Source: a virus. Taken from it: a stretch of DNA of 64,000 nt. Shown here in pieces: positions 980 to 57,039 of the stretch. Each line of letters starts with the position of its first letter. The first letter of the stretch is position 1. The notes beneath the pieces are model-generated. The model searched no databases and was not told the DNA's origin. It saw nothing but the letters and a program-made list of their open reading frames with translations. The DNA lies in IMG/VR virus record IMGVR_UViG_3300021963_000113, positions 3,835 to 67,834 of that record; one strand, given 5' to 3'. Made by a program: the position numbers and the translations under genes.

Positions 980-3900
980 TTAAATCTCCATCAAGAACCA
1001 ACCCTGCTGCTCTCCAGCGATACTATTTCCTGCTGCATCTGTTTCCCCGACATAGATAAGACCAAAAGCAGCATTTGGAGTGTTAACAACCAATTCACCA
1101 CCTCCATAATTAGATGCCCCACCCAAACTACTACCAGTTGGACTTCCTTGTAGAGATGTGCCAAGAGGTGCTCTAATAACTAGATTGACACTAAAGTTTA
1201 GAGCTCCACCAACATCAACAACTCTAATTGTATCTCCAGTAAGAGCGTCCTGAGGAAGTAATAAAACTAAAGTAGATGAAGGTCTAATCAAGTATTGAAT
1301 ATTTGGTCTCAATTGATATTGAGTATCAGATTGGGCAGATGCTTGATTGTTTCCTTGAGCACTAATAAAGACTGTTTTTCTGCCACCATTAGCATTATAG
1401 AAGTTTTCGTGTCCGAAAGCTTGTATAGAAGCATCCTGTCTAATTCTAAATGGTTTTGAATTATTATTACCTAAATTATTAATACTTAAGTAATTAACAG
1501 CAGCAGTAGGAGTACTAGTATAAGAGCCATGTAATGTAAGTGTTGCACCAGTGGCAGCAGAAGTTAATTCTCGTCCAATTACTGTACTACCTAATTGAGC
1601 GTCAACAGAGAATCTAGTAGTAAATGGATTTTGTCCAGTTTCCGTTGATGCGGGAGTAGTTAAAGTACCAACTGTCAAGTCATCGCCAACACGTAAAGTG
1701 CCTGCAATTTTAGTATTGCCAGTAGCACCCAATACTTCAAGTGCAATATTTTGTGCTACATCTTCTCTTCCTTTATCGAAATTACCAGAAGCAAAGAAGG
1801 AATCTTTAAAGATTTTGAGATTACCACCATTATAGATGCTTGTATTTCCAGATGCGGATTCGACATAGAATTTTGGAAGAGATCCATTAGTAATTACGAA
1901 ATACTGTTTTGCTGGTGTAGAAGTAGAAGTATTACCACTCAACTCAATTGAATTATGTACAATTAAGTTTCCGCCACCAGTTGCAATAATTGGATTTCCG
2001 TCCTTATCAACATCTGGTTTAGAAGTGCTAGATGGGAATCCATAAGAATCTGCTAGATTCTGGTCATTATCAGCATCATTAAATGGTTTAGTTGTATCAT
2101 AACCAATTACAACGTCACCAGAAATTTGTGTGTTACCTGTAGTTGATATTGTTTCAAATACTTTTAATGCATCTTTTTCAAATGATTCATTACCAAAATC
2201 TCCATTATTAATGACAAACTTCTGAGCATCTGCAGGATTTACCTGTGTAATTCTCACATATTCGCCACCTTCATTCAAACTTACCTTATTAAGTCTAAAC
2301 AAATCATTAATTTTGATATTTGCAGAGAATTCAGCAACATTAATAGCATTGCTAACGGCCGTTATTGGATTTGGATCTATATACGATGCATTTTGTTGCT
2401 CAACTAATCTGTAAATTCTCTGTCCATCTGGGTGAGATGATGCAGCTGTTCCTCTTTGTGCTCTTATAACTTCAACGTAGAATGGTTGTGGGCTATTAGG
2501 CACAAATGTGGATGGGAAATTAACTGTCTGAATAATTTCTTCACCAATTAAATACAATTGATTAATACCAATACCCGTTGGATTACTAATAGGAAGATTC
2601 CATGTTTGAATTCCATTAAAAATTCTATTCTTGAAAGAATCGTTGCCCCAGGGAACATCACCAGTTGTATCAATCACAGTGGAGAATAATCTCATTCTAG
2701 CATTACCTGCATCAGTAGTGCCAGATCTAAGTGCAATAGTGATATTATTATCAGAACTATTTTTTAATGTAAATCCTGTGGAATCTCTACTTGCAACATA
2801 ATAAGTTACATTAGTAGAAACGCCAGTTAGATTACCAACATCAAAAAATACTACCGCATCGTTTTGACTAAACCAATAATTATCAGAAAGTAATTTATTA
2901 TTTACTACTGTATTGATTCTAACAGTGCCATCAAAATTAGGAACAACAGAGAAATAATCGATATTCAAATTATCAAGACTACCAACCGACTGAGTAAGTC
3001 CTATATTTGTAATTACAGTACCAGTTGCTGCAGCCTGTGGATAATTAATACCAGGATTAGTATAAGTAAATGAATTTGGTCCAGTTACAGTAATTGCTAC
3101 TTGTCCGACCGTATTAAATGAATCGACACTACTTACAATTTGAGCAGTAGAAGAAATATTATGTGGGGAAACAGTGGTTACAGTCGCAACGCCATTAGAT
3201 CTTGTAAGAGTTGCAATTCTAATAGTGCCAAAGATATTTCTATTAATACCAAGATTGGTGTTTTTCAATCCACCATTTTGAGTAACATCAGATTCAAAGA
3301 ATGAAGAACCTAATACTTTCAATCCATTTCTGATTGTAGTTGTGCCAGCAACACCACCAAGAGTTAATGTACCAACACTTAAACCAATATTAAGTTTAGT
3401 AATTCCAGATGGGAATAGAGTGAATTCATCATTCAATGAAGTGGTATTAATTTCACCACCATTAATAGTTAATACACCATCAACTATAGTCTGATAATTT
3501 TTAATGTTGAAGAAACTGGACTGTCTGTTTAAGAATGCTCCACCAAAAGTAATATTTGATGAATATGCAGTATCATTATTTTCAACCGTGCCAATATCAA
3601 TTATAGAATTAGTAGCATTAGTATGAATATTGAGAGTTGATGCACCAGTTACCGCAGTGCCAATATTTACAGTTTGCTGGGTTGTTGCGAGATTTCCAAC
3701 ATTAACTGTTGTTGCATATCCAGCAAGAGTAAGATTAGTAGTGCTAGTCTGATTGGCAATTGTAAAGACACCCGAAGTAGTGCGAATATCTCCACCATTT
3801 ACATCAATATCAGATTCAAATCTGAAATCACCAGTGATTCTACCAGTGCCAGCAACCACAAGTGCTCTATCCAATGCACCATCAGCAATATTAATACCAA

Positions 3901-6900
3901 CTCTACCCTCATTATTTGTAGCAATTCTAAATGTTGCTGTGGTATCTGGATTCGCACTATCACCACCGACTAAGAAAGCATGTCTTGTTGGTAATGGAGT
4001 GCCACCATTAAGATTAGAGAAGTTTGTTTGCTTCTTGCCGCTGATAAAGGCGTTACCAACAACATCAAGGTTTGCTCTTGGCTCAGTTCTTGTTGGGGCA
4101 ATAAATCCAGTTGCATAATCAGTAGAAAGAGCTCTAGCAAGAGTGTTAATACCTAACTTATAATCACCATATGTTTCTGTTTCTGTGCGAAGTGCTTCAG
4201 CACCAATAACACCAACTTCTTTCCACTGCGACTCACCACGAGCAATTTCAAGAGTGCCTTGAATGATTGGATTTGTTGAAGAAATATATGGAGGATTGCC
4301 AGATAATGTAGCTTCAGACGCTCTTCTCGTTAGGAGATAAACATAACTGTTTGATTCGGAGTATTCATATCCTTCAGATGGATTGTCGTATACAGTGTGG
4401 ACACCATTAATAAACTGAAGTCTATCTGTGCCGCCAGTGATTCTGATTTGCGTTGACCTTGTGATTCCGAGAGAAGCTCCAGGATTAGAAGTGCTAAAAT
4501 TAATTTTTCCAATCTGGAAAATTAATTTAACAACATTGAGGTTTGGATAGAATTGTACGCCTGTAATATCAATCGATGATTCTTGTCCAGCAGGTGCGCC
4601 AAGTCTATATGCAACATAAGAATTTGCATAAATCCAACCAAGAGAACCAGTATAATTAATCTGTGCCCCTTTGAGTATTACATCACCAGAAAGAGGAACA
4701 GATGAACCAAAGGCAATAGTTTGTGAAGAATCAAATCTTGCTTTAGCACCAACAGTGAATTGGTTAGGAGTTACGTTTGTAATTGAAGTGCGGAATGAAT
4801 AACGCTGGGTGCCGCGTGTATTCATATCGAATATAGCAGCTCTTACTCTATTCTTATCAATTACAACGTCACCAGCTCTTGTAGTATCAAGTTGGGGGTC
4901 ATCATCACCTGGGAATACACCCTGTCTATCTCCAGGTCTAGAAACAATAGTGAGAGATGGAGGCGTCATGATTGCCTCAAACTCTGGGTCAACATTAATA
5001 GTAACTGGAGAGTTGAAGAAGTTAGTTAAATTTGGTGGAGCATTGAGAGTGATAATATTCTCAAAAGTAACGGGATCTTCAAATACCGTTACGAGGCTAC
5101 CGAAATCTCCATCCTCTTCTGTCTCTTCATCTGTAATAATAGCATCGAGAAACTCTTCTTCACCAGTAATAGCATTAATCTTACGGTTACCGATGTAAAG
5201 CTCACCATTAGAGTTAATACCAGTATAGAATACAATACCAGCATCTTGACGCTTGGACTGTGCATAGTAATCTTGTACAGAAGTTAAGATAACAGTTTGT
5301 CTTGCTGGGAAACCAGTTGAGTAGTTACCAGGACCAAAACCAAGATATTCAAACGTGTGGTTACCTGCACGAGCAATAGATGGTCTACGTAATTCAACAT
5401 AGATTCTTTGCTCTAATGGGAATTGAGAATCACCAGCAATAGGAATTAGTCTTTCCTCAGCCCCAGAAGACGCTGCGCCAGACCTTGCTTCAATCTTAGT
5501 TGCATTTGTAGTGAATTCATATCTACCAGATCCAGGATCTTGAATGAAATCTAATACTGCTTCCTTAGTGATGCTATTCTTAGCATCATTAATTGTTACT
5601 AGACCATGGATGTAGTTATCTGCCGCACAAACAGATGCTGGTGGGTCGATGATAGTTGTATTCTTATTACCACCTTGAGAATCAGAACCATCATACTGGA
5701 ATAATAGTGCATCATTTTTATATGATAGTGGATATAGTCTAGATACTGGTTGACTAAACTTAAAGTTTCTGAAGTTGGTACCAACTCCAGATCCAGTTGG
5801 ATATGGGGAAATATCACCACGAATACACGTTAGGTAGTAAATACCATCTTGCTGGCGTGGAATTCTTCTTTGAATAGTTTCAATTTTGTAAATATAATAT
5901 GTTTGTGCTAGGTCTTCTACATCTTCAACACTCACAACACGATACTGTCTAGCAGCATCGTCAGTAATGATGTCACCTGGAGTTACTGTGTAAACATTAG
6001 ATGCCTCAACTGCATATAAGAAATTTTTCTTATCCTCTTTTCCAAAGTTTGGTCTAGAGATAAGTTCAGCAATTACATTTGCTTCCCCATCAATTTCCTG
6101 AATAAAGAATGTTTGAGTCTTTTCATCAAAATCTAATTCGCCTTCCAAATCCTTTAGAATGAGATAATTGAAAGTTTCTGTGCCACCCTCTACTGGCTCT
6201 GTTCCATACCATGAGTGGACAATAGCAGATCCAGTGTATTCACCATACCATCTAATTCTCTTTTCAGGAACAAAGTTTCCATTACCACCCTGAGGTTGTG
6301 CAACTTTTACAGTTACAAATCTCTTTGCTTTTAGCGATTCTACATCAAGTCCATGGTCGAATACAACCATTTCCATGTATCCACCTTCAACAATCTTCGC
6401 AGATTGAATTGTAAATGAGATATTACTTTCAGTCTTGGTGCCTTCAATTCTCTTTCTAATTTCTGGATTATAAGGATCGTAAGTTCCCAATACATTAGTT
6501 ACACCAATTCTTTCTCTTGGTGATGGACCATTCTGGAAGAATGTCGCATCTTTCTGGTCGTTAGCAGAAACAGGCTTAAGTAGTAATCTCTGAGGTAAAA
6601 GTTTTCTAGTTTCGTCAGTTCTAATTTTAATAGCAAAACCATTGATAGGATCTCTAACATCATCACGATAGTTAGGAATTACATAACGTAGTTTGTAAGT
6701 TCTATCGTCATTTTCTCTAGTATCATCTGCTCTGTAGAAGAATGAGTCTGGAGTTCTGGGTGGTTTGTTAACATATGAAGAACCTCTAGATGGGTCATTC
6801 AATGTTAATCTTTCGTAGATTTCATTACCTTGTAGAAGAGTTCTGATAAACCAACCACCCTGTACAGGGTCATAACCAATAGGACTTCTCTTTCTGTTTG

Positions 6901-9900
6901 CAAGTACAAAGAATTCTTCTCCACTTGGGAAATTAAATTGTACAGCATTTTGTCTATTAATAGCATCAGATACTGATGTATAAATCGAGAATTGATTATT
7001 CTTGGTATATGTTGCTGGTCTACCAACATAGTAGTTTCTATTTGTTTCTAGTCTACCACCAGATGTTTTTGCAGGTAGAGTAGCGAGAGCAGCAGCATCA
7101 ACGATTCCATTGGTTAGATTTTCTTCTAGTGGATAGAAGAATACTTGCTGAACCTGGACACCAGCATATGCAGTATCAAATACGTTATTGGTTGAAGTTT
7201 CAAATACTCTGGAACTTGTTAATTTAGCAGTATAGCGGTGCAAATCGTAATTAACATTTGTCAAATATTGATGAACTTCAATCTGAACATCTGGGTCAAT
7301 TCCACTAGTCTCAGAAGAATAAATGTAGTTACCAGCAGTAGCATTTTCGATGCTAGTTGCAAGCATAAATGACTGAGTATTATTAAATTGTGCTGTTGCT
7401 CCACCAGCAGAATAATCATATGGTGCAGTAATCTTACCAGGAGCAATTACATAATAATTTTTGTTGCTTTCAAATCCTTTTGGTAATCTTACGAGACGCT
7501 TATCAACATCAACTGGTTTACCAGTAGAAGGATCTTTTCTTGGAACAGCAACAAGTCTTACTGGTGTGCCTGTTTCTAGATTGTGTGGATTGCTACCAGA
7601 TACTTTAAATAGAGTTGCTCTCTGTGCAAACGAAGTTGTGTTTACAAGTTGAGAAATGAGAGGCTCGGCATCAACACCATTCTTAATAATGTTTTCAATT
7701 ACTCTCATCTTCTCGATGATAGCATCCTTAGTACCAGCACACTTGTTAGCACTTGTGTCTACAATAATACTATTGTCTCTTTCAGGCTTTGTTCTTTCAG
7801 TATATTCATCTGTACCAAAAGTTTTTGGAGGAAGTGGAGATAGATTTTGAAGAGCGCCGAGAAGAATATCAAACTCAGTGGCAATGGTATAAGCAACATC
7901 TGCACAACGAGGAACTCCAGCAGTTGTAGTATCAATAGTAGGATCAATTTGATAATCTAAAGTTGTATTTGGGCGCTTAACATACAATGGATCGGAGTCT
8001 GTGCCATCACCAGTTCTCCAGTTACGCATCGCAAGAATAGCAAGATCTCTTGCCTTCTTATATGCATATACACTAATATCCAACTCACCAATAAGTGATG
8101 CTGCCCCAGCATTATATTTCAGAGCAGGATACTGATAAGAACCATTTTGTAGTTTTGTGAGAAGAATATTGAATAGTGAATTAATTTCGTTTCTTACATC
8201 AAGATAGGCATTAGGATTATCATTTGGAATGTTTGGACCAGGAACGCCTAATTCTGCTGGGCCAACAGGAATACCAAAATCTCTTACATTGAGTTGATTT
8301 GTTACTGCCTTGAAGCAAAGGTCTCTAGCAGCTTGGAATGCAGTTACTGACTGAGCAATTTCGCCAGCAAGTCCATTGTTTAATAGAGTATTGCCAGTGC
8401 TATCAAAATATGACTTGGTTGCAGTAATAATATTATAGTTTCCACCTAGAGCAAGGTCTTCTGCGATAGAATCAACAATGAATCCGATGTCACGCTTACA
8501 CTTAGCTTGGAATTCTGGTGCGCTACCATAATTAATTGGAGGTAATGCTGGATTTTGTGTAGTGCCAGTTACTAAATCACCTTGACGAATTCTAGCAAAA
8601 ATAATATTAGAAAGTGTATCTAATGTTGCTTGGACATTAGAGCAAGATTGACTATCATCATTGTTAGCAGTTACACCAGGAGTGCCAAATACGCTTAATC
8701 CAGATTGAGGAGTGCCAGGTGCTGGATCTCCAGTTAGAGAAAGATCTTTAACAGTTAGTTGGTTAGTAATTGCCTTCTTCATTTCGGCAATTGCCGCAGT
8801 GTAGGCAAAGATAGATTTTTGCTCTTCACCTTGAAGACCATTCTGAATCCATGCCTGCTCTACTGTAGAAACAGTTACTACAACATCATCAACTACATTA
8901 ACACCACCAATAGAAGATCCAGGAATAGTTACTGTATTACCAGCAACATACTTATAACCAGCAGCGTTAATAGTAACAGATGTAATTGCACCAGTAGAGC
9001 TTCTGGTTACATTGAAGGTAGCTCCCACACCGCTACCATTTGTCGTAGTTGAAACGCCAGTGTAAACTCTATTCTGTCTATTGGAAAGAGTAGTGCCATT
9101 GCTACGGGTAAAGGTTAAGATTTTGCCATTAACTTTATCTTCAATAAAATATTGACGAATAAAATCAATAGAATATGAGTTTCCTAGTGTAGTTAAATCA
9201 GTAGAAACTGCATCAATAAAATATCCGATATCACGCTTACACTTGTTTTCTAAATCTGCTGGAGCAGGTGTTGGAAGGCCGCTAGCAAGTAGAGCATTAT
9301 AAGCATTATTAATAATTTCTGCTCTATTTTGCTGAATTAGACGATATGAATCCTTATATCTTGAATAAACATTTGTCTGAGTATCTCCACCATCTGTAAA
9401 TCCAGGTCCACCATAATAGAAATCTGGATATTCGATAGCAAGTTTTGCAGCTGCTTTGTCTACAATTTCTCTTCTATTTGAAAGAATAAGATTCTTGGAA
9501 TAAGCATAACGAGAAGGAGCTCCAACATATGCTTCTGTAGCAGTTACAATACCAGAGTTGCCAGTTGTTTTAAGGTCTTGAATTACACCATCAAGCACTA
9601 AACCAATATCACGCTTACACTTAGTATCGTTTGGCACTGTAACTGTTGGGTATTGTGCCTTAGCAAGATTGAGTGCTTCTTCTGCAATAAAATCTTTGTT
9701 GCGATTGATTAAAGTGCCAGCATCAAATGCTCTACCAGATGAGGTAGCAAACTTACCTTGCTCTAATTCAAAGTTGAGTGTAACACCACCAACACCAATA
9801 GAGTTTGCAGTAATGGTAATGAGTGCTTGCACCTCCTCAGTATCATTTCTGTTACCAAGTTTAAATTGAGTTGTGTTTACAATTTCTCTAATATAGGTGC

Positions 9901-12343
9901 CAGCAGGAATTGGATTTGTTTGACCAGAAGCAACTGTAGCAGTTACTTTCATGCCCTCTACTAATCCAATAGTAGTGATATTGTTGGGTACAGTAACTGT
10001 TGATTGTCCAACAAAAGTTGAGCATCCTTCAATACGGAAATTCCAATTACGCATTGCAGCAACTGCAAGATTTCTAGCGTAATTAAATGCATCAAGAGTT
10101 TCTTCCTTCTCTGTGCTGATATAATCTAATTCGTTACCAACATAGTATGCTTGTGCTGCCTGGACGCTATTAACATTACCACCAACACGAAGGTCATTGG
10201 CAACTGCTTCTAGGATATAACCTACGTCACGCTTACACTTATTGATGCTGATGGGTCTAGTGAGAAGATATGGATACTTACGAGTGATGTATCCATATGT
10301 TTCAGCAGCAATGAAATCTCTGTTTAAATCAATAAGATTTGCAGCATCTTGGTCGTTGTTTGAAACTCCAGTTGCTACGCTTGGACTCAAAATAGATAGA
10401 GAAACATTCCACTTCTGATAACCAGATGGAGAAATTTCTGCACTGCGAATAGCTCCAGTAAATCCCTGTGCTGGATCTAGTTTAACATAAATTTTTTCGT
10501 GTGCAGCTGCGCCAAGACGATAACCATTTACAGTAGTAGATGGTTTTTGTAAAGGATTAGATGCTTCATCCTGACCATAATATAGTTTTGTTGTAACAGA
10601 AGAATTGCCGTTGGGACCATCAAAGTTTAGAGCATTTGGATTTCTAGACTTGATTTGATTGAATGTGAAATACTGGAATTTCTTAGTTGTAGTGGTAACT
10701 TTTCTTGGTGGGACAATGTGCGAAATATATCCACCTTGATCCTGGGCAAAGGAATATCCCTTATAACCAATAGCATGTAGAGAGGTATTACCAAAGTTAG
10801 AGTTTGAGTTGGTGATAGACATATCACCACCAGACTCCATGAGGAAGTGGTCAGCGAAACCTACAGCGAAGATAGAAACGTTTTGAATGAATGCGTCATT
10901 CGATGCTTTAACGTGGAAGTTTCTCCAATCATCTTTCCAGTATGCGTCACCCTTAGTGTGGTAAGGTGTGGTTGCAAACGCATCAGTAAGAGGTGCCTGA
11001 TTCCAAGTGTTAGAGAATTCATCGTAGCGAATGAATGCTCTGTCGTCTCTCTGTAGCGAAACACCCGTATACTGGGCGATAACCATCGACTTGAAACCAC
11101 TTGCCTTGGATCCATCAGCGTGGATGCCACAGATACCCCACGTAGAGCGGATAGAGACGTTGAAGACGTATGGTGAGGCAGATTCTACCGAGTCAACTTC
11201 CGCTTGCGTGATGGCGTTTGTATCGAGCGTAGGAGGCGTAATTGGTTGCCCAATTCTATCGCCTAATCCTACAGCAGCAGCATTCTTACCTTCTACACGA
11301 TACGAGAATTCTTTAGGATCACTAATGCTGATTCCTCTAACAGCAAATACACCAGTGAGAGGGTCATTTGCAAGTGGAATTGGCTCGCTAGCACCTGCAG
11401 GAAGAGTCGAACGAAGATTCGCAACAGCAACTGCTTGTCCTACATAATATCCATGATTTGTCTTCGTTCTAACAGTGACATCTAAAGCAGTGGTGCCAGG
11501 GACATTATTAACTTCGATAGAATCAATACGAATAGCATCTTGAAGAGGACCAACAATTCTATTTTCTTGTGGTCTCTGAGTAAATTCACCAGGATCGTCA
11601 ATTGTTGGTTGGAATAGAGAGAATGCCTTAGCAATCTTTCTGTAAAGTAAACCTAGATCGTCTCTACTAGCAAATTCAAAGTTACAAATTTTGTGGTGAG
11701 AATAATAAGGTATAGATTTAATAGTAGAATTTGGTTGAGAATAAACTTTACCAATTCCTTCATTTTCATCATACAATGGTGAATTAGGATCAACATCACC
11801 ATCAAGAATAGTAAACTGCCAGAAATAGCATCCACCAGTTACGTTAAAAAGGGTTGTGCGACCGATATCCTTGTCTGCTGGGTCTGGAACATAGAGAGGA
11901 TGCAGACGAGTCCTACGGAGGTCCATACCAACGAGAGAGGTGCCTCTAGGAATCGTAGCGCCACCGTTAGGACCGTTAAACTTGTAGAGAATATTATCAG
12001 GATTGCTGAGGTCTACAATCGAGTTATCTTCCCACTCTTGTGTTGCTTGATTGAATGCAAAAGGAACAATTTCCTCTGCATTCATGATGCCAGGACGGTT
12101 ATCAATATAGTGGTTGCCTGGCGACAACATAATTGTAAATTGGTCAAAACGATCATTCTCTTGACCAGGAACATACGAATACCTAGCAACCTCTAGGAAT
12201 GCTCTCTGAATTGTGAGGAAAGGACGGGTTGGGGAGTTGCCTCTATTGTCTAATGCATCAGAAGCATTAAAATCGTCAGGTGAAACATATAGATATCTTC
12301 CAGTTTTACTAGAAATTAAATTCTCTAATTTGGTTAGTGGCAT
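980..12343 (-). CDS. Giant (3787 aa) cyanophage structural/fibre protein with four internal phycobiliprotein-like units
   Basis: N-terminus MPLTKLENL..YVSPDD..GNSPTRPFLTIQRA is typical of large cyanomyovirus structural proteins. Beta-rich C-terminus, four KCKRD repeats, late promoter upstream. Confidence 0.8.
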   Translation of the reverse strand: MPLTKLENLISSKTGRYLYVSPDDFNASDALDNRGNSPTRPFLTIQRAFLEVARYSYVPGQENDRFDQFTIMLSPGNHYIDNRPGIMNAEEIVPFAFNQATQEWEDNSIVDLSNPDNILYKFNGPNGGATIPRGTSLVGMDLRRTRLHPLYVPDPADKDIGRTTLFNVTGGCYFWQFTILDGDVDPNSPLYDENEGIGKVYSQPNSTIKSIPYYSHHKICNFEFASRDDLGLLYRKIAKAFSLFQPTIDDPGEFTQRPQENRIVGPLQDAIRIDSIEVNNVPGTTALDVTVRTKTNHGYYVGQAVAVANLRSTLPAGASEPIPLANDPLTGVFAVRGISISDPKEFSYRVEGKNAAAVGLGDRIGQPITPPTLDTNAITQAEVDSVESASPYVFNVSIRSTWGICGIHADGSKASGFKSMVIAQYTGVSLQRDDRAFIRYDEFSNTWNQAPLTDAFATTPYHTKGDAYWKDDWRNFHVKASNDAFIQNVSIFAVGFADHFLMESGGDMSITNSNSNFGNTSLHAIGYKGYSFAQDQGGYISHIVPPRKVTTTTKKFQYFTFNQIKSRNPNALNFDGPNGNSSVTTKLYYGQDEASNPLQKPSTTVNGYRLGAAAHEKIYVKLDPAQGFTGAIRSAEISPSGYQKWNVSLSILSPSVATGVSNNDQDAANLIDLNRDFIAAETYGYITRKYPYLLTRPISINKCKRDVGYILEAVANDLRVGGNVNSVQAAQAYYVGNELDYISTEKEETLDAFNYARNLAVAAMRNWNFRIEGCSTFVGQSTVTVPNNITTIGLVEGMKVTATVASGQTNPIPAGTYIREIVNTTQFKLGNRNDTEEVQALITITANSIGVGGVTLNFELEQGKFATSSGRAFDAGTLINRNKDFIAEEALNLAKAQYPTVTVPNDTKCKRDIGLVLDGVIQDLKTTGNSGIVTATEAYVGAPSRYAYSKNLILSNRREIVDKAAAKLAIEYPDFYYGGPGFTDGGDTQTNVYSRYKDSYRLIQQNRAEIINNAYNALLASGLPTPAPADLENKCKRDIGYFIDAVSTDLTTLGNSYSIDFIRQYFIEDKVNGKILTFTRSNGTTLSNRQNRVYTGVSTTTNGSGVGATFNVTRSSTGAITSVTINAAGYKYVAGNTVTIPGSSIGGVNVVDDVVVTVSTVEQAWIQNGLQGEEQKSIFAYTAAIAEMKKAITNQLTVKDLSLTGDPAPGTPQSGLSVFGTPGVTANNDDSQSCSNVQATLDTLSNIIFARIRQGDLVTGTTQNPALPPINYGSAPEFQAKCKRDIGFIVDSIAEDLALGGNYNIITATKSYFDSTGNTLLNNGLAGEIAQSVTAFQAARDLCFKAVTNQLNVRDFGIPVGPAELGVPGPNIPNDNPNAYLDVRNEINSLFNILLTKLQNGSYQYPALKYNAGAASLIGELDISVYAYKKARDLAILAMRNWRTGDGTDSDPLYVKRPNTTLDYQIDPTIDTTTAGVPRCADVAYTIATEFDILLGALQNLSPLPPKTFGTDEYTERTKPERDNSIIVDTSANKCAGTKDAIIEKMRVIENIIKNGVDAEPLISQLVNTTSFAQRATLFKVSGSNPHNLETGTPVRLVAVPRKDPSTGKPVDVDKRLVRLPKGFESNKNYYVIAPGKITAPYDYSAGGATAQFNNTQSFMLATSIENATAGNYIYSSETSGIDPDVQIEVHQYLTNVNYDLHRYTAKLTSSRVFETSTNNVFDTAYAGVQVQQVFFYPLEENLTNGIVDAAALATLPAKTSGGRLETNRNYYVGRPATYTKNNQFSIYTSVSDAINRQNAVQFNFPSGEEFFVLANRKRSPIGYDPVQGGWFIRTLLQGNEIYERLTLNDPSRGSSYVNKPPRTPDSFFYRADDTRENDDRTYKLRYVIPNYRDDVRDPINGFAIKIRTDETRKLLPQRLLLKPVSANDQKDATFFQNGPSPRERIGVTNVLGTYDPYNPEIRKRIEGTKTESNISFTIQSAKIVEGGYMEMVVFDHGLDVESLKAKRFVTVKVAQPQGGNGNFVPEKRIRWYGEYTGSAIVHSWYGTEPVEGGTETFNYLILKDLEGELDFDEKTQTFFIQEIDGEANVIAELISRPNFGKEDKKNFLYAVEASNVYTVTPGDIITDDAARQYRVVSVEDVEDLAQTYYIYKIETIQRRIPRQQDGIYYLTCIRGDISPYPTGSGVGTNFRNFKFSQPVSRLYPLSYKNDALLFQYDGSDSQGGNKNTTIIDPPASVCAADNYIHGLVTINDAKNSITKEAVLDFIQDPGSGRYEFTTNATKIEARSGAASSGAEERLIPIAGDSQFPLEQRIYVELRRPSIARAGNHTFEYLGFGPGNYSTGFPARQTVILTSVQDYYAQSKRQDAGIVFYTGINSNGELYIGNRKINAITGEEEFLDAIITDEETEEDGDFGSLVTVFEDPVTFENIITLNAPPNLTNFFNSPVTINVDPEFEAIMTPPSLTIVSRPGDRQGVFPGDDDPQLDTTRAGDVVIDKNRVRAAIFDMNTRGTQRYSFRTSITNVTPNQFTVGAKARFDSSQTIAFGSSVPLSGDVILKGAQINYTGSLGWIYANSYVAYRLGAPAGQESSIDITGVQFYPNLNVVKLIFQIGKINFSTSNPGASLGITRSTQIRITGGTDRLQFINGVHTVYDNPSEGYEYSESNSYVYLLTRRASEATLSGNPPYISSTNPIIQGTLEIARGESQWKEVGVIGAEALRTETETYGDYKLGINTLARALSTDYATGFIAPTRTEPRANLDVVGNAFISGKKQTNFSNLNGGTPLPTRHAFLVGGDSANPDTTATFRIATNNEGRVGINIADGALDRALVVAGTGRITGDFRFESDIDVNGGDIRTTSGVFTIANQTSTTNLTLAGYATTVNVGNLATTQQTVNIGTAVTGASTLNIHTNATNSIIDIGTVENNDTAYSSNITFGGAFLNRQSSFFNIKNYQTIVDGVLTINGGEINTTSLNDEFTLFPSGITKLNIGLSVGTLTLGGVAGTTTIRNGLKVLGSSFFESDVTQNGGLKNTNLGINRNIFGTIRIATLTRSNGVATVTTVSPHNISSTAQIVSSVDSFNTVGQVAITVTGPNSFTYTNPGINYPQAAATGTVITNIGLTQSVGSLDNLNIDYFSVVPNFDGTVRINTVVNNKLLSDNYWFSQNDAVVFFDVGNLTGVSTNVTYYVASRDSTGFTLKNSSDNNITIALRSGTTDAGNARMRLFSTVIDTTGDVPWGNDSFKNRIFNGIQTWNLPISNPTGIGINQLYLIGEEIIQTVNFPSTFVPNSPQPFYVEVIRAQRGTAASSHPDGQRIYRLVEQQNASYIDPNPITAVSNAINVAEFSANIKINDLFRLNKVSLNEGGEYVRITQVNPADAQKFVINNGDFGNESFEKDALKVFETISTTGNTQISGDVVIGYDTTKPFNDADNDQNLADSYGFPSSTSKPDVDKDGNPIIATGGGNLIVHNSIELSGNTSTSTPAKQYFVITNGSLPKFYVESASGNTSIYNGGNLKIFKDSFFASGNFDKGREDVAQNIALEVLGATGNTKIAGTLRVGDDLTVGTLTTPASTETGQNPFTTRFSVDAQLGSTVIGRELTSAATGATLTLHGSYTSTPTAAVNYLSINNLGNNNSKPFRIRQDASIQAFGHENFYNANGGRKTVFISAQGNNQASAQSDTQYQLRPNIQYLIRPSSTLVLLLPQDALTGDTIRVVDVGGALNFSVNLVIRAPLGTSLQGSPTGSSLGGASNYGGGELVVNTPNAAFGLIYVGETDAAGNSIAGEQQGWFLMEI

Positions 12344-12384
12344 GTTCCTCAGGTACCCTTAATTACATAGGATTTCTTCTGTGT

Positions 12385-12392
12385 TATTTATA
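12385..12392 (-). promoter_or_regulatory. T4-type late promoter TATAAATA for the giant structural gene
   Basis: Exact TATAAATA about 40 nt upstream of the ATG at 12343. Confidence 0.8.
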
Positions 12393-12393
12393 C

Positions 12394-12420
12394 AAAAAAA
12401 CCCCAGGCGGACCTGGGGTT
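12394..12420 (-). terminator. Rho-independent terminator after tRNA-Thr
   Basis: AACCCCAGG-TCCG-CCTGGGGTT followed by a T run on the minus strand. Confidence 0.8.
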
Positions 12421-12442
12421 GGTTTTACTTCCTTCACACGGA

Positions 12443-12516
12443 AGCCCAAGGTCGGACTTGAACCGACGACCTACGGTTTACAAAACCGTTGCTCTATCCA
12501 GCTGAGCTACTCAGGC
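12443..12516 (-). tRNA. tRNA-Thr(UGU)
   Basis: Cloverleaf; anticodon arm ACGGT-TTTGTAA-ACCGT. The 5' end overlaps the pebS stop codon. Confidence 0.95.
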
Positions 12517-13143
12517 ATATTCAAAGAGAAATTCGTGTGTATATTTCTCTCCAAACTCTTTACCAAATTTAGAAGACATGTAACCAGAAACAGGATCTAA
12601 CTTTAGCATATATTTGTCAAAATCAGCAAATTCTGTTACATCATCTTCATCTGGTTGTGCTTCTTCTAGTAATTTGGCGTAAGTGCTAACATATTTCTCG
12701 AAATCAGGCAAATATTGCTCAACTTCATCCATATGGCACTTACGCACAAATACATAGCGTGAAAAGTGATTACCTGGCTCAAAGAAACGAATTTCTTTGG
12801 TATTGCCAGCATACTCACCCATGTTTTCCCTCACAATCTCATGATCAAAGTCATAATGCTCTTTTGGGTGTTGAAAATCAAATGTTAGAATAACTTTGTT
12901 TTCAAAGAATGCCATCAAGTCCATTCCCAGACAAGGCAGGTTTTTGCCTGTTTTTGGATAGATGATATTATTATATATTGAAGAAACACCGTGGGAAATA
13001 TCGGTAATTCTTGCTTTTTTGATATACTTGCCCTCGTAGAGCATCGAATCCATCACAATGTCCTTGTGACTATGAGTTTCACTGTATGTTTTGTTTAGGT
13101 CCAGATAGTCAAAAAGTATTTCATGGTATTTGCCCCAAAACAT
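12511..13143 (-). CDS. pebS: Phycoerythrobilin synthase (ferredoxin-dependent bilin reductase)
   Basis: Motifs IYPKTG.NLPCLGMDLM, FDFQHP, RFFE.GNHFS and LDPV.GYM match cyanophage PebS, including both catalytic Asp residues. Confidence 0.92.
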   Translation of the reverse strand: MFWGKYHEILFDYLDLNKTYSETHSHKDIVMDSMLYEGKYIKKARITDISHGVSSIYNNIIYPKTGKNLPCLGMDLMAFFENKVILTFDFQHPKEHYDFDHEIVRENMGEYAGNTKEIRFFEPGNHFSRYVFVRKCHMDEVEQYLPDFEKYVSTYAKLLEEAQPDEDDVTEFADFDKYMLKLDPVSGYMSSKFGKEFGEKYTHEFLFEYA

Positions 13144-13153
13144 AATCGTGTCC

Positions 13154-13420
13154 TCAGTCGTCTTTAGGAAGTAGCTCTGGATTGTCTATTTCTACTTCAA
13201 ACATTAGCGGATGCATTTCTTCCATTATTAAATAATTGGAAATTTTAAACATATCCTCATCATCGTAATCACGATGAGTCAGTGCTTCTGTTTGGACAGC
13301 AGGGTGGTCTTGTATAATCTGAGGTAATTCGTCAAATGTATAGGGAAGACCTTGGATGAAATACATTCGCACAACTTCTCCCATATAGAAGCAGTATGCT
13401 TGTGTTAGTGTGTATTTCAT
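13154..13420 (-). CDS. Cyanophage hypothetical protein (88 aa)
   Basis: Start trimmed to MKYTLTQAY because the longer ORF overlaps tRNA-Leu. Late-type ACTAAATA at 13440-13447. Confidence 0.7.
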   Translation of the reverse strand: MKYTLTQAYCFYMGEVVRMYFIQGLPYTFDELPQIIQDHPAVQTEALTHRDYDDEDMFKISNYLIMEEMHPLMFEVEIDNPELLPKDD

Positions 13421-13453
13421 TACATTTCCCACTACAATGTATTTAGTAGGAAA

Positions 13454-13537
13454 TAGGGCGAGGGAGACTTGAACTCCCACGGGCATAAGCCCAACAGATT
13501 TTAAGTCTGGTGTGTCTACCGATTCCACCACCGCCCC
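13454..13537 (-). tRNA. tRNA-Leu(UAA)
   Basis: Cloverleaf with long variable arm; anticodon loop CTTAAAA. Confidence 0.95.
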
Positions 13538-13671
13538 AAAAATTACCGACAAATAATAGTATCGGTTTTTAGTAGTTTTCTACACTTATCTAGTAGGTCA
13601 AAGAATTCATTAATTGTGGAGCATTTAAGGACAATAGTGGAATTGTCCTCTCCACGAATGATTATCTTCTT

Positions 13672-13700
13672 ATTATACAGGTCCGTTGTGATTTTGTCAA
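13672..13700 (-). promoter_or_regulatory. Sigma70-type early promoter
   Basis: TTGACA-N17-TATAAT. Confidence 0.85.
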
Positions 13701-51886: not shown

Positions 51887-52180
51887 TCAGTTAAGGTTTT
51901 CTTCTTGTTCAGTAAGGATGACGCAATCGCTGGTGGGATATGCTACGCAAGTGAGCACCCAACCATCAGCAAGTTGGTCGTCATCAAGGAAAGATTGCTC
52001 TTCATTATCTACTGTACCGCTAATGAGTTTGCCAGCACAAGCAGAGCAAGCGCCAGCACGGCAACTGGAAGGTAAATCAATGCCAGCCTCTTCAGCTGCT
52101 TCAAGAATGTATTGATCTTCAGGACACTGAATAGTTGCCTCGGTGCCATCAGGTGAGCGGAGGGTAACGGAATAAGTCAT
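51887..52180 (-). CDS. petF: Plant-type [2Fe-2S] ferredoxin
   Basis: [23 protein letters not shown]. Confidence 0.98.
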
Positions 52181-52279: not shown

Positions 52280-52474
52280 TCAGAAGATGCCGAAGAAGAG
52301 CTTGCCAGTGACCATATAAGAAATAGCACCAGCAACAATGCCGACCATAGCCCAGCGTCCATTATACTTCTCCTTTACTTGGTTTGGGGTGTCCATACCA
52401 TAGTTTTCGTAATACATGGTAGGCTCTTTGGCAAACATATTCTGTTGACCAAACTCATTGGTTGTGACAGTCAT
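52280..52474 (-). CDS. hli: High-light-inducible protein
   Basis: NMFAKEP and EKYNGRWAMVG motifs. Confidence 0.93.
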   Translation of the reverse strand: MTVTTNEFGQQNMFAKEPTMYYENYGMDTPNQVKEKYNGRWAMVGIVAGAISYMVTGKLFFGIF

Positions 52475-55043: not shown

Positions 55044-55046
55044 TCC

Positions 55047-55088: not shown

Positions 55089-55097
55089 TATTGTATA

Positions 55098-55126: not shown

Positions 55127-55129
55127 CAA

Positions 55130-55201
55130 TGGGAACAGATAGATTTGAACTATCGACCTCCGCGTTATCAGCACGTTGCTCTACCACTGAGCTATGCTCC
55201 C
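55130..55201 (-). tRNA. tRNA-Ile(GAU)
   Basis: Cloverleaf; anticodon loop CTGATAA. Confidence 0.93.
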
Positions 55202-55204
55202 ATA

Positions 55205-55276
55205 TGGGTCTGGTGGGATTTGAACCCACAACTTCCAGGTTAAAAGCCCGTTACTCTACCATTGAGTTACAGACCC
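55205..55276 (-). tRNA. tRNA-Lys(UUU)
   Basis: Cloverleaf; anticodon loop CTTTTAA. Confidence 0.95.
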
Positions 55277-55280
55277 TCAA

Positions 55281-55362
55281 TGGGCAGGGAGGGATTTGAA
55301 CCCCCGTAGGCAGAGCCAGCGGATTTACAGTCCGCCTCCATTAACCACTCGGACACCTACCC
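55281..55362 (-). tRNA. tRNA-Tyr(GUA)
   Basis: Cloverleaf with variable arm; anticodon loop CTGTAAA. Confidence 0.95.
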
Positions 55363-55458
55363 AGATGGAGCAAGTGTGATACACCTCAAGGATGTAACAG
55401 TGACTTGCCCTCTATCTCACCACGGCATTCTGGTTTATCTTTCCAGCGCAAGTGGTAA

Positions 55459-55530
55459 CTGGAGTGGTGGGATTCGAACCTACGACCAATCGGTTAACAG
55501 CCGACCGCTCTACCACTGAGCTACACTCCA
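55459..55530 (-). tRNA. tRNA-Asn(GUU)
   Basis: Cloverleaf; anticodon loop CTGTTAA. Confidence 0.95.
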
Positions 55531-55536
55531 ATGAAA

Positions 55537-55707
55537 TCAGGACTGTTTAGTGTCCATCATGTATTCTACTGTGTTTGCAATATCATTCATTGCATCACGT
55601 AGAAAAGGTCGTTGACCAGATTCCTGGCGAACTATTGGGCGATGATCATCAGTGAGCGACCATCGCCATTGCTTCAACATTTCACAATACCATAGATTAA
55701 TCTTCAT
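55537..55707 (-). CDS. Hypothetical protein
   Basis: Start trimmed to MKINLWYC..QWRW.L..ESGQ. Confidence 0.65.
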   Translation of the reverse strand: MKINLWYCEMLKQWRWSLTDDHRPIVRQESGQRPFLRDAMNDIANTVEYMMDTKQS

Positions 55708-55900
55708 GTTTGCTATACTCCAATCGTATCCAGTTGAGAAGTGCGTAGACTTCTGACAATTCTGATTTGTATTCGGTATAGTCTGTGTCATCAAAAAGTT
55801 TTTCTTTTTCAAAAAATTCAATTTCACTGGTCAAAAAATCCACATAATGATTGAATACATTGATTGCAAGTTGTCTGTCTCTCTGTGAAATAAGTGACAT
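55697..55900 (-). CDS. Hypothetical protein
   Basis: GAGG RBS; begins MSLISQRDR. Confidence 0.65.
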   Translation of the reverse strand: MSLISQRDRQLAINVFNHYVDFLTSEIEFFEKEKLFDDTDYTEYKSELSEVYALLNWIRLEYSKHED

Positions 55901-55922
55901 GTTATTTATCCTCAGGGATAAG

Positions 55923-55994
55923 AGCGGAGTATCGGAATCGAACCGACGACATCTAACTTGGAAGGATAGCGTTCTACCGCTGAACTAACTCCGC
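55923..55994 (-). tRNA. tRNA-Gly(UCC)
   Basis: Cloverleaf; anticodon loop CTTCCAA. Confidence 0.93.
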
Positions 55995-56080
55995 ATGGCA
56001 GGAAGGAGAGCTCTTGATGCAATCGCAGGATCACTTCCCCCTTGGCCTCCTTCTAGGCTGTCTGCCTAACGAGTAACCAA

Positions 56081-56162
56081 TGTCGATGAGAGGACTTGAA
56101 CCTCCACGAATAAATTCACTGGAACCTAAACCCAGCGCGTCTACCAATTCCGCCACATCGAC
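56081..56162 (-). tRNA. tRNA-Leu(UAG)
   Basis: Cloverleaf with variable arm; anticodon loop TTTAGGT. Confidence 0.95.
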
Positions 56163-56163
56163 T

Positions 56164-56199
56164 TATTTATATTATACCCGAGAGGGTGGGGGATGTCAA
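56164..56199 (-). promoter_or_regulatory. Composite early and late promoter for the tRNA cluster
   Basis: TTGACA-N17-TATAAT overlapping TATAAATA. Confidence 0.85.
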
Positions 56200-56335
56200 C
56201 CCCCCGTTGCTCGGCTCGCCACTTGCCCTTTGACCAGAGGCAAGAAACTGGGCGGGAGTTATCCCCATCCGCACCACCAGTTTTTGAGAGAAACTGGAAA
56301 CTCATCGAGGGGGTTTCCCGACCAGGGCACTTTTA
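56198..56335 (-). ncRNA. manA-like structured RNA
   Basis: GAGTTTCCAGTTTCTC..AAACTGGTGG and GTTTCTTGCC..GGCAAGTGGCGAGCC modules, closed by AACCCCC/GGGGGGTT, next to tRNAs. Family assigned from recall. Confidence 0.65.
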
Positions 56336-56338
56336 ACG

Positions 56339-56575
56339 TCATTCCGAGACGGTTTGAGGAATTAAATCCTCGTATGCAGCATCTACTGCGTCCTGAAATT
56401 TACTATACGGTCCATGATTAACATCATTATACACATAGTAATACTTGTTTTCAACCTCTAGCACATCGAAATAAGTAATAACTTTATCTCCGTTGTCAAG
56501 GTCTTCAACGATTCGCATCCTAACAGGATTTGTATCAACAGGTTGCATAACATTCAAAGGGTAACGTGACTCCAC
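56339..56575 (-). CDS. Hypothetical protein
   Basis: HGPY..F.DAV.AA motif; operon context. Confidence 0.6.
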   Translation of the reverse strand: MESRYPLNVMQPVDTNPVRMRIVEDLDNGDKVITYFDVLEVENKYYYVYNDVNHGPYSKFQDAVDAAYEDLIPQTVSE

Positions 56576-56583
56576 CAGTGCTT

Positions 56584-57039
56584 TTAAAGTCTCTCCGTGA
56601 CTTGTTTTTCAAAGATATATAGGTCTTTTCCACCCCACACAATTTCACCGTTTTTGATACCAGCATCATAACACAACACCTGATTGCCTGTCAAGGTCAT
56701 TCTGGTTTCCATACGAGCATCATAAAGAATGCATTCTTCGTGATTAGTGCCCTCCCATGCTGTTGATGTGCGAGTGAAAATCATATCACATGGATACTTT
56801 TCCCAGTTGGCATCATAGTTTCTGACAATAATATTATTACCAGAGATTTCTAGTCGATGATACTTCTCTCTATAAGGAGCATCTTCACCAGCATAGTTAT
56901 ACCAGTGCTTAGAGTGAATTTCATTCTCTCCCACTTGCTCCCAATAGCAGTGAATGTATGCAAACTTAGATGGATTTACAAATGCTTGGTCTCTATTGTG
57001 ATAACGACCAAGTAGAAAAGAAAGAAAGTCTTCTATCAT
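56584..57039 (-). CDS. cpeT: T-type phycobiliprotein (bilin) lyase
   Basis: G.Y.N..QA..NP..FA.I, PYR, CDM.F, W.G and D.G...G..VWG motifs. Confidence 0.88.
   Translation of the reverse strand: MIEDFLSFLLGRYHNRDQAFVNPSKFAYIHCYWEQVGENEIHSKHWYNYAGEDAPYREKYHRLEISGNNIIVRNYDANWEKYPCDMIFTRTSTAWEGTNHEECILYDARMETRMTLTGNQVLCYDAGIKNGEIVWGGKDLYIFEKQVTERL

Follow-up and report, generated by a model that had tools for sequence, protein, structure and literature searches.

The giant protein encoded in the stretch of viral DNA analysed here (64,000 nucleotides, hereafter the window) contains four repeat units with a KCxRD motif which, judged by profile comparison, are truly homologous to the region around the bilin-carrying Cys84 in phycobiliproteins. 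Since four sites of the pigment-attachment type stand in a tail protein, and since viral pigment genes lie beside or travel with the genes for such proteins, the virus particle may itself carry light-absorbing pigment. The best explanation as a whole, which we put forward tentatively, would be that units in a virion protein carry a bilin and that CpeT delivers the pigment. A sequence-only reading of the window had proposed that PebS, PetF and CpeT form a chromophore supply chain for a structural protein of the phage itself. From this proposal, the phage-encoded target with KCxRD repeats has become credible through the Pfam and PDB profile matches of its units, and cpeT turned out to be linked to such units, whereas pebS as a dedicated supplier could not be upheld. 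The features on which the argument rests are collected in Table 1.

Table 1. Coordinates of the giant gene, its phycobiliprotein-like units and the surrounding features in the window.
Feature	Position	Strand	Details
Giant ORF	980..12343	-	3787 aa; ORF and translation; ATG at 12343
Phycobiliprotein-like unit 4	8261..8665	-	Cys1282 codon 8498-8500; first row of alignment A1
Phycobiliprotein-like unit 3	9002..9406	-	Cys1035 codon 9239-9241; PF00502 match; beta-rich insert after the unit
Phycobiliprotein-like unit 2	9344..9805	-	residues 847-1000; Cys909 codon 9617-9619; KCKRD; row of A1 and A2
Phycobiliprotein-like unit 1	9962..10423	-	residues 641-794; Cys703 codon 10235-10237; first row of alignment A2
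TATAAATA, T4-type late-promoter motif	12385..12392	-	read from the sequence; 41 bases 5' of the ATG of the giant gene
Intrinsic-terminator-like hairpin and T-run	12394..12420	-	9 pairs (6 G-C); 3' of tRNA-Thr
tRNA-Thr (TGT)	12443..12516	-	ARAGORN
pebS-type ferredoxin-dependent bilin reductase	12511..13143	-	210 aa; occupies the variable slot 5' of the giant gene
Small conserved gene, S-PM2 p216-like	13154..13420	-	~88 aa; phrog_4134 E 2.4e-41, residues 45-132 of the listed ORF
petF, plant-type 2Fe-2S ferredoxin	51887..52180	-	97 aa; PF00111 E 5.6e-25
cpeT, short phage type (PhiCpeT-like)	56584..57039	-	151 aa; PF06206 E 1.7e-9

The giant protein has 14 cysteines in total and holds the KCKRD motif four times, at the cysteines given in Table 1, where 0.0014 occurrences are predicted from its composition; a second cysteine of unit 4, at position 1234, lies within an SCSNV motif. 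All four units align with the Cys84 region of solved chains. When the PDB was searched with a single sequence, every one of the seven matches obtained at E<10 was an alpha chain of phycocyanin or phycoerythrin. Six of them are aligned in the neighbourhood of Cys84, at chain residues ~68-106, with residues ~1266-1303 of unit 4 pairing with residues 68-105 of phycocyanin alpha. The profile of alignment A1 (117 units) gave 103 PDB matches at E<10, led by the alpha chain of R-phycocyanin (1f99_A, E 1.9e-8), and the profile of alignment A2 (65 units, looser motif) gave 74 at E<=0.01, with phycoerythrin alpha 5aqd_A at E 9.4e-8; in both cases, the best 60 of these matches are all phycobiliprotein-family chains. 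Because the units for both profiles were selected by motif, the weight of the site in them is inflated.

One could object that the units resemble phycobiliproteins through a helical motif that arose by chance or convergence, and that bilins are irrelevant to the repeats, as the gathering cut-off of PF00502 (22.2 bits) is passed by one of the four units and narrowly so (unit 3, residues 999-1044 against profile positions 34-85 of 155; 24.0 bits, E 4.2e-5), and as the E-values of the structural comparison with Foldseek never fall below 0.013. However, two separately built profiles reach E-values of 1e-7 to 2e-8, some alignments of the A2 profile cover chain residues 31-156 and hence nearly the whole globin-like domain, the top 50 structural matches are without exception phycobiliprotein-family chains, and 55 of the 120 metagenomic relatives listed carry a precomputed PF00502 match, so that we regard a mere coincidence of motifs as extremely improbable.

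The predicted fold lends moderate support to this likeness. For unit 1, the AF2 model has a pLDDT of 66.5 (core 75-86), and its top 50 Foldseek matches in the PDB have TM scores of 0.39-0.61 and a best E-value of 0.013; the modelled helical fold would superpose on that of the alpha subunits with TM 0.5-0.6, and on phycoerythrin alpha 5aqd_A and 7f86_A with TM 0.55-0.56 and an rmsd of 3.6-3.8 Å over 123 columns. The model of unit 4 (AF2, first model; model pLDDTs 65-66) gave TM scores of 0.2-0.44 and E-values of 0.86 or higher.

The match between the units and phycobiliprotein alpha subunits (C-/R-phycocyanin and phycoerythrin alpha) runs from helix A/B past Cys84 into helix E, and both have the motif K-C-x-R-D-(I/V)-G, followed by GG. 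In contrast to phycobiliproteins, which are free subunits of 160-170 aa, the units are tandem modules of ~130-155 aa inside virion proteins of 1,500-8,500 aa, they stand outside any phycobilisome context and have neither a partner subunit nor a linker, and in about one third of them the upstream helix is swapped for a different, Cys-bearing one. The units have no counterpart to the first 20-30 residues of these solved structures, which form the X-Y helices for alpha/beta pairing; the alignments begin at chain residue ~14-39. As internal tandem modules of a 3787-aa protein in which the pairing helices find no match, the units are thus homologues of the domain and not phycobilisome subunits, and we rejected the idea that they represent free alpha or beta subunits of a phycobilisome.

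In phycobiliproteins, the Cys-x-Arg-Asp site carries a thioether-linked bilin and grips the propionate and the pyrrole nitrogens of the bilin. Cys, Arg and Asp of the predicted site are the best-kept positions of the units, which otherwise show ~26% column identity. The cysteine is kept in 147 of the 157 distinct units found by HMM in related loci, and in 31 of the 41 HMM-found units that had not been pre-selected by motif. From our point of view, the units probably bind a bilin. With regard to their distribution, a search with the repeat region matched 341 phage records, every one of them from cyanophages or a marine single-cell virus, and with the most distant unit-bearing protein as query this applies to all 69 matched phage records; among matching phage records, the unit is restricted to cyanophages.

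The giant gene sits in a tail-fibre/baseplate module, between the gene for a gp5 baseplate hub/lysozyme on its upstream side and that for a tail-collar/short-fibre protein on its downstream side. It is a late gene and the orthologue of the gene for the 'short tail fiber protein' YP_195253 (3779 aa) of S-PM2, a phage with 10 unit matches spread over two proteins. N-terminus and repeat region also match the giant genes of S-WAM2, S-RSM4, Syn1, S-CAM1 and Sf-FP1, whose products are of similar size (3,700-4,800 aa) and whose gene order is the same (gp5 ... p216-like ... giant ... gp12-like). The difference lies in the slot upstream of the giant gene, which in the S-PM2-type phages contains a full-length cpeT (in Sf-FP1 also a pcyA-like reductase), whereas the window has pebS at this place and a short cpeT 44 kb off. 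Units as in the window are likewise present in the 'baseplate wedge initiator' S-SZBM1_208 (6619 aa) and in the 6,000-8,600-aa giants of Syn9, P-RSM4, P-SSM7, P-RSM6 and P-TIM40, which form another paralogue class and, unlike the giant gene of the window, are encoded at genome positions of ~65-117 kb, away from gp5 and gp12. For S-SZBM1_208, a table of one study lists 71 peptides detected by mass spectrometry in CsCl-purified particles (PMC9146016), which demonstrates that a unit-bearing protein is present in virions.

The sequence-only reading had described pebS as the nearest upstream protein gene on the strand of the giant gene, with a tRNA-Thr, a terminator and a late promoter in between, and each of these elements could be located (Table 1). 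On the minus strand, pebS is followed by the tRNA gene, the terminator hairpin, the TATAAATA motif, which we take to be the T4 late-promoter consensus, a GAGGAA ribosome-binding site and the ATG of the giant gene, with six terminator-like sites in the interval 12200-13700 compared with 0.7 expected from shuffles. On its upstream side the slot is bounded by the p216-like small gene, whose homologues in relatives are followed by cpeT or the giant gene. The ORF listed for it overlaps, in its 5' part, with a tRNA-Leu at 13453-13538. The pebS product itself (PF05996, E 9.5e-21) is by sequence a PebS-type bilin reductase, an enzyme type that converts biliverdin to phycoerythrobilin by four-electron reduction, and has PebS as its best solved relative (P-SSM2, 2vck_A, E 5.3e-49 over residues 28-209), nearer than PebA (2x9o_A, E 3.2e-14). 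It is 42% identical (tblastn) to the phycoerythrobilin synthase of P-SSM2 (PDB 2vck), which with 233 aa is longer at the N-terminus than the 210-aa window copy, and 47.6% identical to the copy of P-HM1.

The co-occurrence and synteny of pebS with the repeat proteins, which had been proposed as a check of the supply chain, speak against a dedicated role. We found no association between pebS and the units; five of the ten pebS-bearing isolates have no unit, and pebS needs seven changes on the portal tree. Its genomic position in the window is unlike that in every isolate examined, where pebS is usually found in replication modules with cobS/gp45 or gp32 as neighbours, and of five close pebS relatives from IMG/VR that are informative, three have no giant gene after them. 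Compared with the 341 unit-bearing records, pebS was found in 33 phage records and is hence absent from at least 308 of the former. Seven related contigs, one of them with a repeat region 92% identical to that of the window, have nothing in the slot; two others have a 2OG-Fe(II) oxygenase there, with an HNH endonuclease nearby; and the giant gene of Sf-FP1 follows a pcyA-like reductase after 41 bases. From the gene orders of Sf-FP1 and the other relatives it follows that, depending on the lineage, the same slot holds pebS, cpeT, or cpeT together with a pcyA-like reductase, and as it is hypervariable, adjacency to the giant gene may reflect an insertion hot spot. That PebS mainly serves the giant protein is very unlikely.

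The rarity of pebS beside the units, the changing content of the slot and the terminator and separate late promoter that split pebS from the giant gene would also be in line with the conventional notion that (i) PebS, PetF and CpeT are auxiliary metabolic genes for the phycoerythrin or bilin pool of the host; (ii) the units are pigment-free helical spacers; and (iii) pebS came to its position by chance insertion. The loss of the cysteine in 10 of the 157 units fits this notion, as does the association of cpeT with the units, which amounts to two transitions, and the rise of host phycoerythrin upon infection with S-PM2, which passages of a review attribute to cpeT (PMC2984593). However, a spacer has no evident need for Cys, Arg and Asp to be its best-kept residues, units are found only in phages of bilin-making hosts, and three different bilin genes occupy the slot by the giant gene across lineages. 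Furthermore, a comparative genomics study speaks, in the passages concerned, of 'a mystery' with regard to the role of phage pebS and pcyA, and describes the role of cpeT as 'unresolved' (PMC3037559). Overall, we see in auxiliary genes combined with pigment-free spacers a real possibility, albeit on balance a doubtful one.

The petF and cpeT genes were placed correctly in the window, as their Pfam matches confirm (Table 1), and the C-x4-C-x2-C pattern of the cluster cysteines is visible in the petF translation. A PF01126 search for heme oxygenase, which had been reported as missing from the window, gave no match there or in the rest of the 67,834-base contig; as the contig is a fragment estimated to be 35% complete, this absence refers to the contig alone.

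The case of cpeT differs from that of pebS. The window copy matches PF06206 with 38.3 bits (cut-off 21) over profile positions 2-80 of 181 only, i.e., the N-terminal half, and its residues 1-131 match PhiCpeT of Prochlorococcus phage P-HM1 (5hi8_A, E 1.6e-8; PDB 5hi8, deposited as 'Antenna protein'). Its relatives occur in 288 phage records, all from cyanophages. Among 28 complete cyanomyovirus genomes, units are present in all 14 that carry cpeT and in two of the 14 that do not, with the remaining 12 having neither (Fisher p 6e-6), and genomic adjacency in relatives points the same way, so that for cpeT the proposed co-occurrence with KCxRD-repeat proteins was borne out. In S-PM2, S-RSM4, S-WAM2, Syn1, S-CAM1, Sf-FP1 and contig L028, the orthologous giant gene is preceded at 0.24-1.5 kb by a full-length cpeT in the same orientation. 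Two contigs, and by coordinates a third, carry a short cpeT that follows a 10-unit giant gene at a distance of 0.3 kb. In eight of the 14 isolates with both, the distance between cpeT and any unit-bearing gene is tens of kilobases, and it is 44 kb in the window.

On the portal tree cpeT needs two changes and offers only two independent contrasts, with 13 of the 14 phages that have both falling into one clade, and because of this the association is inseparable from shared descent. It could be imagined that the units receive a bilin from the host pool via host lyases or autocatalysis, that phage cpeT, pebS and petF act on the antenna of the host or have some other purpose, and that the co-occurrence is one of clade structure. 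S-BM3 and S-SKS1, with one unit each and no cpeT, would fit such a scenario, and so would the type of the attachment site. Cys84-type sites are served by E/F-, S/U- and Y/Z-type lyases, and we know of no T-type lyase that serves them. In passages of PMC10452541, the T-type lyases CpcT/CpeT are described as acting on Cys-153 of beta subunits and not on the Cys84-type site, whereas the site proposed for the units is of the latter type. On the other hand, cpeT adjoins unit-bearing giant genes in two different arrangements and with two different cpeT types, and S-SCSM1 has both cpeT and a unit within a clade whose other members carry neither. In addition, the MED4 phages P-HM2 and MED4-213 combine 5-6 unit matches with ho1, pebS and cpeT, while the lyase set of Prochlorococcus MED4 is much reduced. 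We consider attachment by host lyases or autocatalysis, with the phage genes serving other purposes, unlikely and, provided that the units bind a bilin, lean slightly towards a participation of the phage CpeT.

In the explanation we favour, in which the units carry a bilin delivered by CpeT, the giant gene would encode a virion protein that is made late and belongs to the tail-fibre/baseplate module, and in which residues ~640-1400 would comprise four helical units of phycobiliprotein descent with alpha subunits as their closest solved relatives. The units would be chromophorylated in the infected cell with any bilin available (PEB, perhaps PCB or PUB), and a few dozen covalently bound bilins per particle could result. 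The 'supply' gene tied to the giant protein would be cpeT, encoding a bilin-holding chaperone or a lyase that delivers the pigment, while PebS and PetF, and elsewhere pcyA-like reductases and ho1, would boost the bilin supply in hosts with a small pool without being dedicated to the giant protein.

Prochlorococcus is devoid of phycobilisomes, and the question arises why even its phages carry genes such as cpeT, pebS, pcyA and ho1. A phage protein with conserved predicted bilin-attachment sites would represent a phage-side client for at least cpeT. If the units bind a bilin, a light-absorbing chromoprotein would be built into the virus particle and host antenna protein domains would have been recruited into phage structural proteins. 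If they do not, the units still document that virion proteins have taken up an antenna domain of the host, an event that is widespread and restricted to cyanophages and of which we found no published description.

A pigment-bearing tail protein would further be a concrete candidate in the context of adsorption, which in some cyanomyoviruses, according to passages of PMC6628666, proceeds only in light and independently of host photosynthesis. Both this light requirement and the presence of bilin genes in phages would then become directly testable. One could speculate that bilin-bearing units turn the tail-fibre/baseplate protein into a virion-borne photoreceptor in which absorbed light shifts the fibre conformation and thereby licenses adsorption, a scenario that we consider quite unlikely. 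In such a case, cpeT would act as a dedicated chromophore chaperone of the viral light sensor, and phage pebS, pcyA and ho1 would secure pigment in bilin-poor hosts. Three phages have a published adsorption behaviour that can be checked against this idea, and all three agree with it: from passages of the same source, P-HM2 (five unit matches) does not adsorb in the dark and S-PM2 (10) adsorbs only in light, whereas P-SSM2, in which no unit match was found, adsorbs in the dark (PMC6628666).

The motif KCKRD occurs in the giant tail protein at Cys703, 909, 1035 and 1282 (of 14 cysteines in total), where 0.0014 occurrences would be expected from composition. The phycobiliprotein family PF00502 matches residues 999-1044 over profile positions 34-85, with 24.0 bits barely exceeding the cut-off of 22.2, and a plain sequence search of residues 650-1400 against the PDB returned seven weak matches, every one a phycocyanin or phycoerythrin alpha chain, six of them with the match near Cys84 (chain residues about 68-106). 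Much stronger matches were obtained with profiles, both of which were built from motif-selected units. Using 117 distinct units cut out around the motif from 43 related IMG/VR loci, 103 PDB matches at E<10 were found, the best 60 of which are all phycobiliprotein-family chains (top match R-phycocyanin alpha, E 1.9e-8), and the aligned part of the chain begins at residue 31, includes Cys84 and extends to the GG that follows helix E. A second set of 65 units, cut longer and selected by a less strict motif, gave 74 matches at E<=0.01; once more the best 60 are without exception phycobiliprotein chains, and chain residues 31-156 are covered in several alignments.

The AF2 models of the units are of middling confidence (pLDDT 65-66). 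Unit 4 (Cys1282), folded from a mixed alignment, was poorly modelled in its N-terminal half and gave Foldseek E-values of at least 0.86. Unit 1 (Cys703), folded afterwards from an alignment of units sharing one upstream-helix type, performed better: phycobiliprotein-family chains make up all of its top 50 PDB matches by Foldseek, with no E-value below 0.013, and it superposes on phycoerythrin alpha with a TM of 0.55-0.56 and an rmsd of 3.6-3.8 A over 123 columns. We are thus confident from the sequence comparisons, and moderately confident from the predicted fold, that the units represent diverged phycobiliprotein domains.

An HMM of the units, run on the related loci, recovered 157 distinct units covering the motif, with the Cys kept in 147 and KCxRD read in 116; among the 41 units lacking motif pre-selection the Cys is kept in 31, and column identity among the units is about 26% elsewhere. 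It is against this retention that one alternative has to be weighed, namely that the units are pigment-free and that cpeT, pebS and petF all serve the host antenna, which we regard as possible but somewhat doubtful. In 37 of the 117 units (about a third) the upstream helix is of another type and carries a further conserved Cys, possibly a second attachment site. This Cys is part of a C-x-(N/D/T)-(V/I) motif, precedes the KCxRD Cys by 41-48 residues and corresponds to Cys1234 in the window.

Of 50,697 phage records searched by tblastn with the repeat region, 341 gave a match, and these are Synechococcus or Prochlorococcus phages save for one marine single-cell virus (cpeT was found in 288 phage records and pebS-like genes in 33). 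With the most distant unit-bearing protein from IMG/VR as query there were 69 matching phage records, all cyanophages. When metagenomic proteins of 271-2000 aa were searched with the profile, 121 matched; of the 120 listed, none has an informative name and 55 come with a precomputed PF00502 match. The annotations given to unit-bearing proteins are tail, short-tail-fibre, baseplate-wedge or structural protein, and 71 peptides of one such protein, S-SZBM1_208 (6619 aa), were detected in CsCl-purified virions (PMC9146016). No description of phycobiliprotein-like domains in phage virion proteins was found in the literature searched, the coverage of which was incomplete, with most subscription journals outside it. 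The IMG/VR contigs of loci L032, L034 and L035 carry the most divergent of the unit-bearing proteins and are, according to CheckV, 2-13% complete at 9-41 kb, implying very large genomes; their isolate relatives are cyanophages only.

The source contig is a 67.8-kb fragment of a T4-like cyanomyovirus, estimated to be 35% complete, and the giant gene resides in its tail module, with gp5 hub/lysozyme and other baseplate/tail proteins upstream and a tail-collar/short-fibre protein downstream. The sequence-only reading had proposed that PebS, PetF and CpeT might supply chromophore to this phage protein, and the gene arrangement on which it drew is correct. The pebS gene lies just upstream of the giant gene, followed on the minus strand by tRNA-Thr, the hairpin terminator, the late-promoter motif TATAAATA, a ribosome-binding site and the ATG; petF and cpeT were confirmed within the window by Pfam matches; and heme oxygenase, reported as not visible in the window, was not found in the whole contig either, itself a fragment of the phage genome. 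With a terminator and a late promoter between them, pebS and the giant gene are unlikely to be co-transcribed. Since two of the 16 tRNA genes in the window flank pebS and the other 14 cluster around cpeT, the bilin genes lie in tRNA-rich, variable regions. The window also carries psbA, and a 64-aa ORF beside petF presumably resembles a high-light-inducible protein.

Positions of the features discussed, in the window and in related records
Feature	Record	Position	Strand	Remarks
Giant ORF	window	980..12343	-	3787 aa
Giant-protein residues 1 to about 640	window	10424-12343		58-61% identity to S-WAM2 and S-RSM4; no Pfam family match (residues 1-640)
Second conserved Cys (Cys1234)	window	8642-8644
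Late-promoter motif TATAAATA	window	12392-12385	-
G+C-rich hairpin and T-run	window	12420-12394	-
pebS	window	12511..13143	-	PF05996 E 9.5e-21; best solved relative PebS 2vck_A E 5e-49 vs PebA 3e-14
tRNA genes	window	12443-13538 and 55129-60499
psbA	window	40877-41956		PF00124 E 1e-88
petF	window	51887..52180		PF00111 E 6e-25
64-aa ORF	window	52280-52474		no Pfam match at E<=0.001
Short cpeT	window	56584..57039		PF06206 E 1.7e-9; PDB 5hi8_A E 1.6e-8
2OG-Fe(II) oxygenase	S-PM2, NC_006820.1	165307-165888
2OG-Fe(II) oxygenase	L014	2001-2549
2OG-Fe(II) oxygenase	L015	6585-7139
HNH endonuclease	L002	7120-7587		PF13392/PF01844
CP12 - cpeT - pcyA	P-SSM7, NC_015290.1	13407-14559
tRNA features listed inside the giant CDS	S-PM2, NC_006820.1	168556-173383		16 features, single locus tag

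If the bilin genes served the giant protein, pebS and cpeT might be expected to accompany the units across genomes, and this expectation held for cpeT and failed for pebS. The unit profile and Pfam models were applied to 28 complete genomes of isolates; 10 had been found by a pebS match, 3 by a cpeT match, S-PM2 by a tRNA match, S-SKS1 and P-TIM40 by a repeat match and 12 by a trait-neutral tail protein. Units are present in 14 of 14 genomes with cpeT vs 2 of 14 without it (S-BM3 and S-SKS1, one unit each), leaving 12 with neither (Fisher p 6e-6, in a small sample partly chosen through the traits compared). With the six genomes picked by cpeT, tRNA or repeat match omitted, the counts are 9 with both, 0 with cpeT only, 1 with units only and 12 with neither (p 2e-5). 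A tree of portal proteins places 13 of the 14 phages carrying both traits in one clade (support 97), S-SCSM1 being the sole separate event, and on it cpeT requires 2 changes, the units 4 and pebS 7. As such, there are only two independent cpeT contrasts, with which no test can reach significance. The units showed no association with pebS, or with any ferredoxin-dependent bilin reductase, among the 28 isolates (Fisher p 0.70 in both cases); the units are absent from five of the ten pebS phages, among them P-SSM2, the source of the characterised PebS. Reductases of the pcyA type occur in five of the 28 genomes, all five with units, and ho1 in five, three of them with units. These distributions also bear on the reading in which host enzymes pigment the units and the phage bilin genes are unrelated to them, which we consider unlikely.

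The synteny result was similarly divided, in that cpeT was found near the giant gene in several lineages, whereas pebS precedes it only in the window and in two contigs from IMG/VR. The isolates have pebS between cobS and gp45 (S-BM3, S-SSM7, Sf-FS3, S-8S55), beside gp32 (P-HM2, MED4-213) or elsewhere. An IMG/VR single-protein scan with the window PebS gave 7 close relatives, with the giant gene after pebS in two of five informative loci, neither of which adds a new contig; the 3 close relatives from the scan with the window CpeT were not enough for a survey of synteny. Gene order is conserved as gp5 ... p216-like gene, a variable slot, giant gene and gp12-like gene. Apart from the three pebS cases, the slot is occupied by a 2OG-Fe(II) oxygenase in two contigs and by a full-length cpeT in L028 (0.24 kb from the giant gene), and it is empty in seven related contigs, one with a repeat region 92% identical to that of the window. 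It is plainly an insertion hot spot. In S-PM2, S-RSM4, S-WAM2, Syn1, S-CAM1 and Sf-FP1, which form one clade, the p216-like gene is followed by cpeT, a few small genes and the giant gene; Sf-FP1 also has a pcyA-like reductase gene, whose end is 41 bases ahead of the giant gene, and a separate lineage has a giant gene of 10 units with a short cpeT 0.3 kb downstream of it. Three different bilin genes are therefore found in the giant-gene neighbourhood, and that they share it in different lineages is suggestive, with the reservation of the hot spot and of the single clade.

Further observations concern the surroundings of the slot. Among giant proteins of the S-PM2 type, from six isolates and L028, the N-terminal 30 residues are near-identical. 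The recurrent 2OG-Fe(II) oxygenase (about 183-193 aa), directly upstream of the giant gene in S-PM2, L014 and L015, may be a structural-protein-modifying enzyme or a mere passenger of the slot; ORFs of like size (190-199 aa) occur in Syn1, S-CAM1 and Sf-FP1. An HNH endonuclease gene (L002 copy tested against Pfam) is located just before the p216-like gene in close relatives (L002, with the same ORF in L007, L008 and L010), which fits an insertion hot spot. In P-SSM7, pcyA immediately follows cpeT, so bilin genes also cluster together away from any giant gene.

From our point of view, the reading to be tentatively preferred takes the units to be chromophorylated virion domains, in whose loading phage CpeT would help; PebS and PetF would merely enlarge the bilin pool. 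Two points count against a role of CpeT: a review gives T-type lyases as specific for beta-Cys153 (PMC10452541), and cpeT lies far from any unit-bearing gene in 8 of the 14 genomes with both. A complex prediction for unit 1 and the window CpeT, for which the CpeT alignment had 6 rows only, gave a score of 0.02 against a mark of 0.32, which speaks neither for binding nor against it.

One could speculate that bilin-bearing units in the tail protein act as a putative virion photoreceptor governing light-dependent adsorption, an idea that we hold to be rather improbable. According to PMC6628666, adsorption in the dark is absent in P-HM1 and P-HM2 and present in P-SSM2, and S-PM2 adsorbs in the light only. 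Unit matches number 5 in P-HM2, 10 in S-PM2 and 0 in P-SSM2; these three phages fit and prove nothing, and their match with adsorption behaviour makes the photoreceptor worth testing. In S-PM2, RefSeq further shows 16 tRNA features within the giant CDS, which looks like a coordinate or annotation error.
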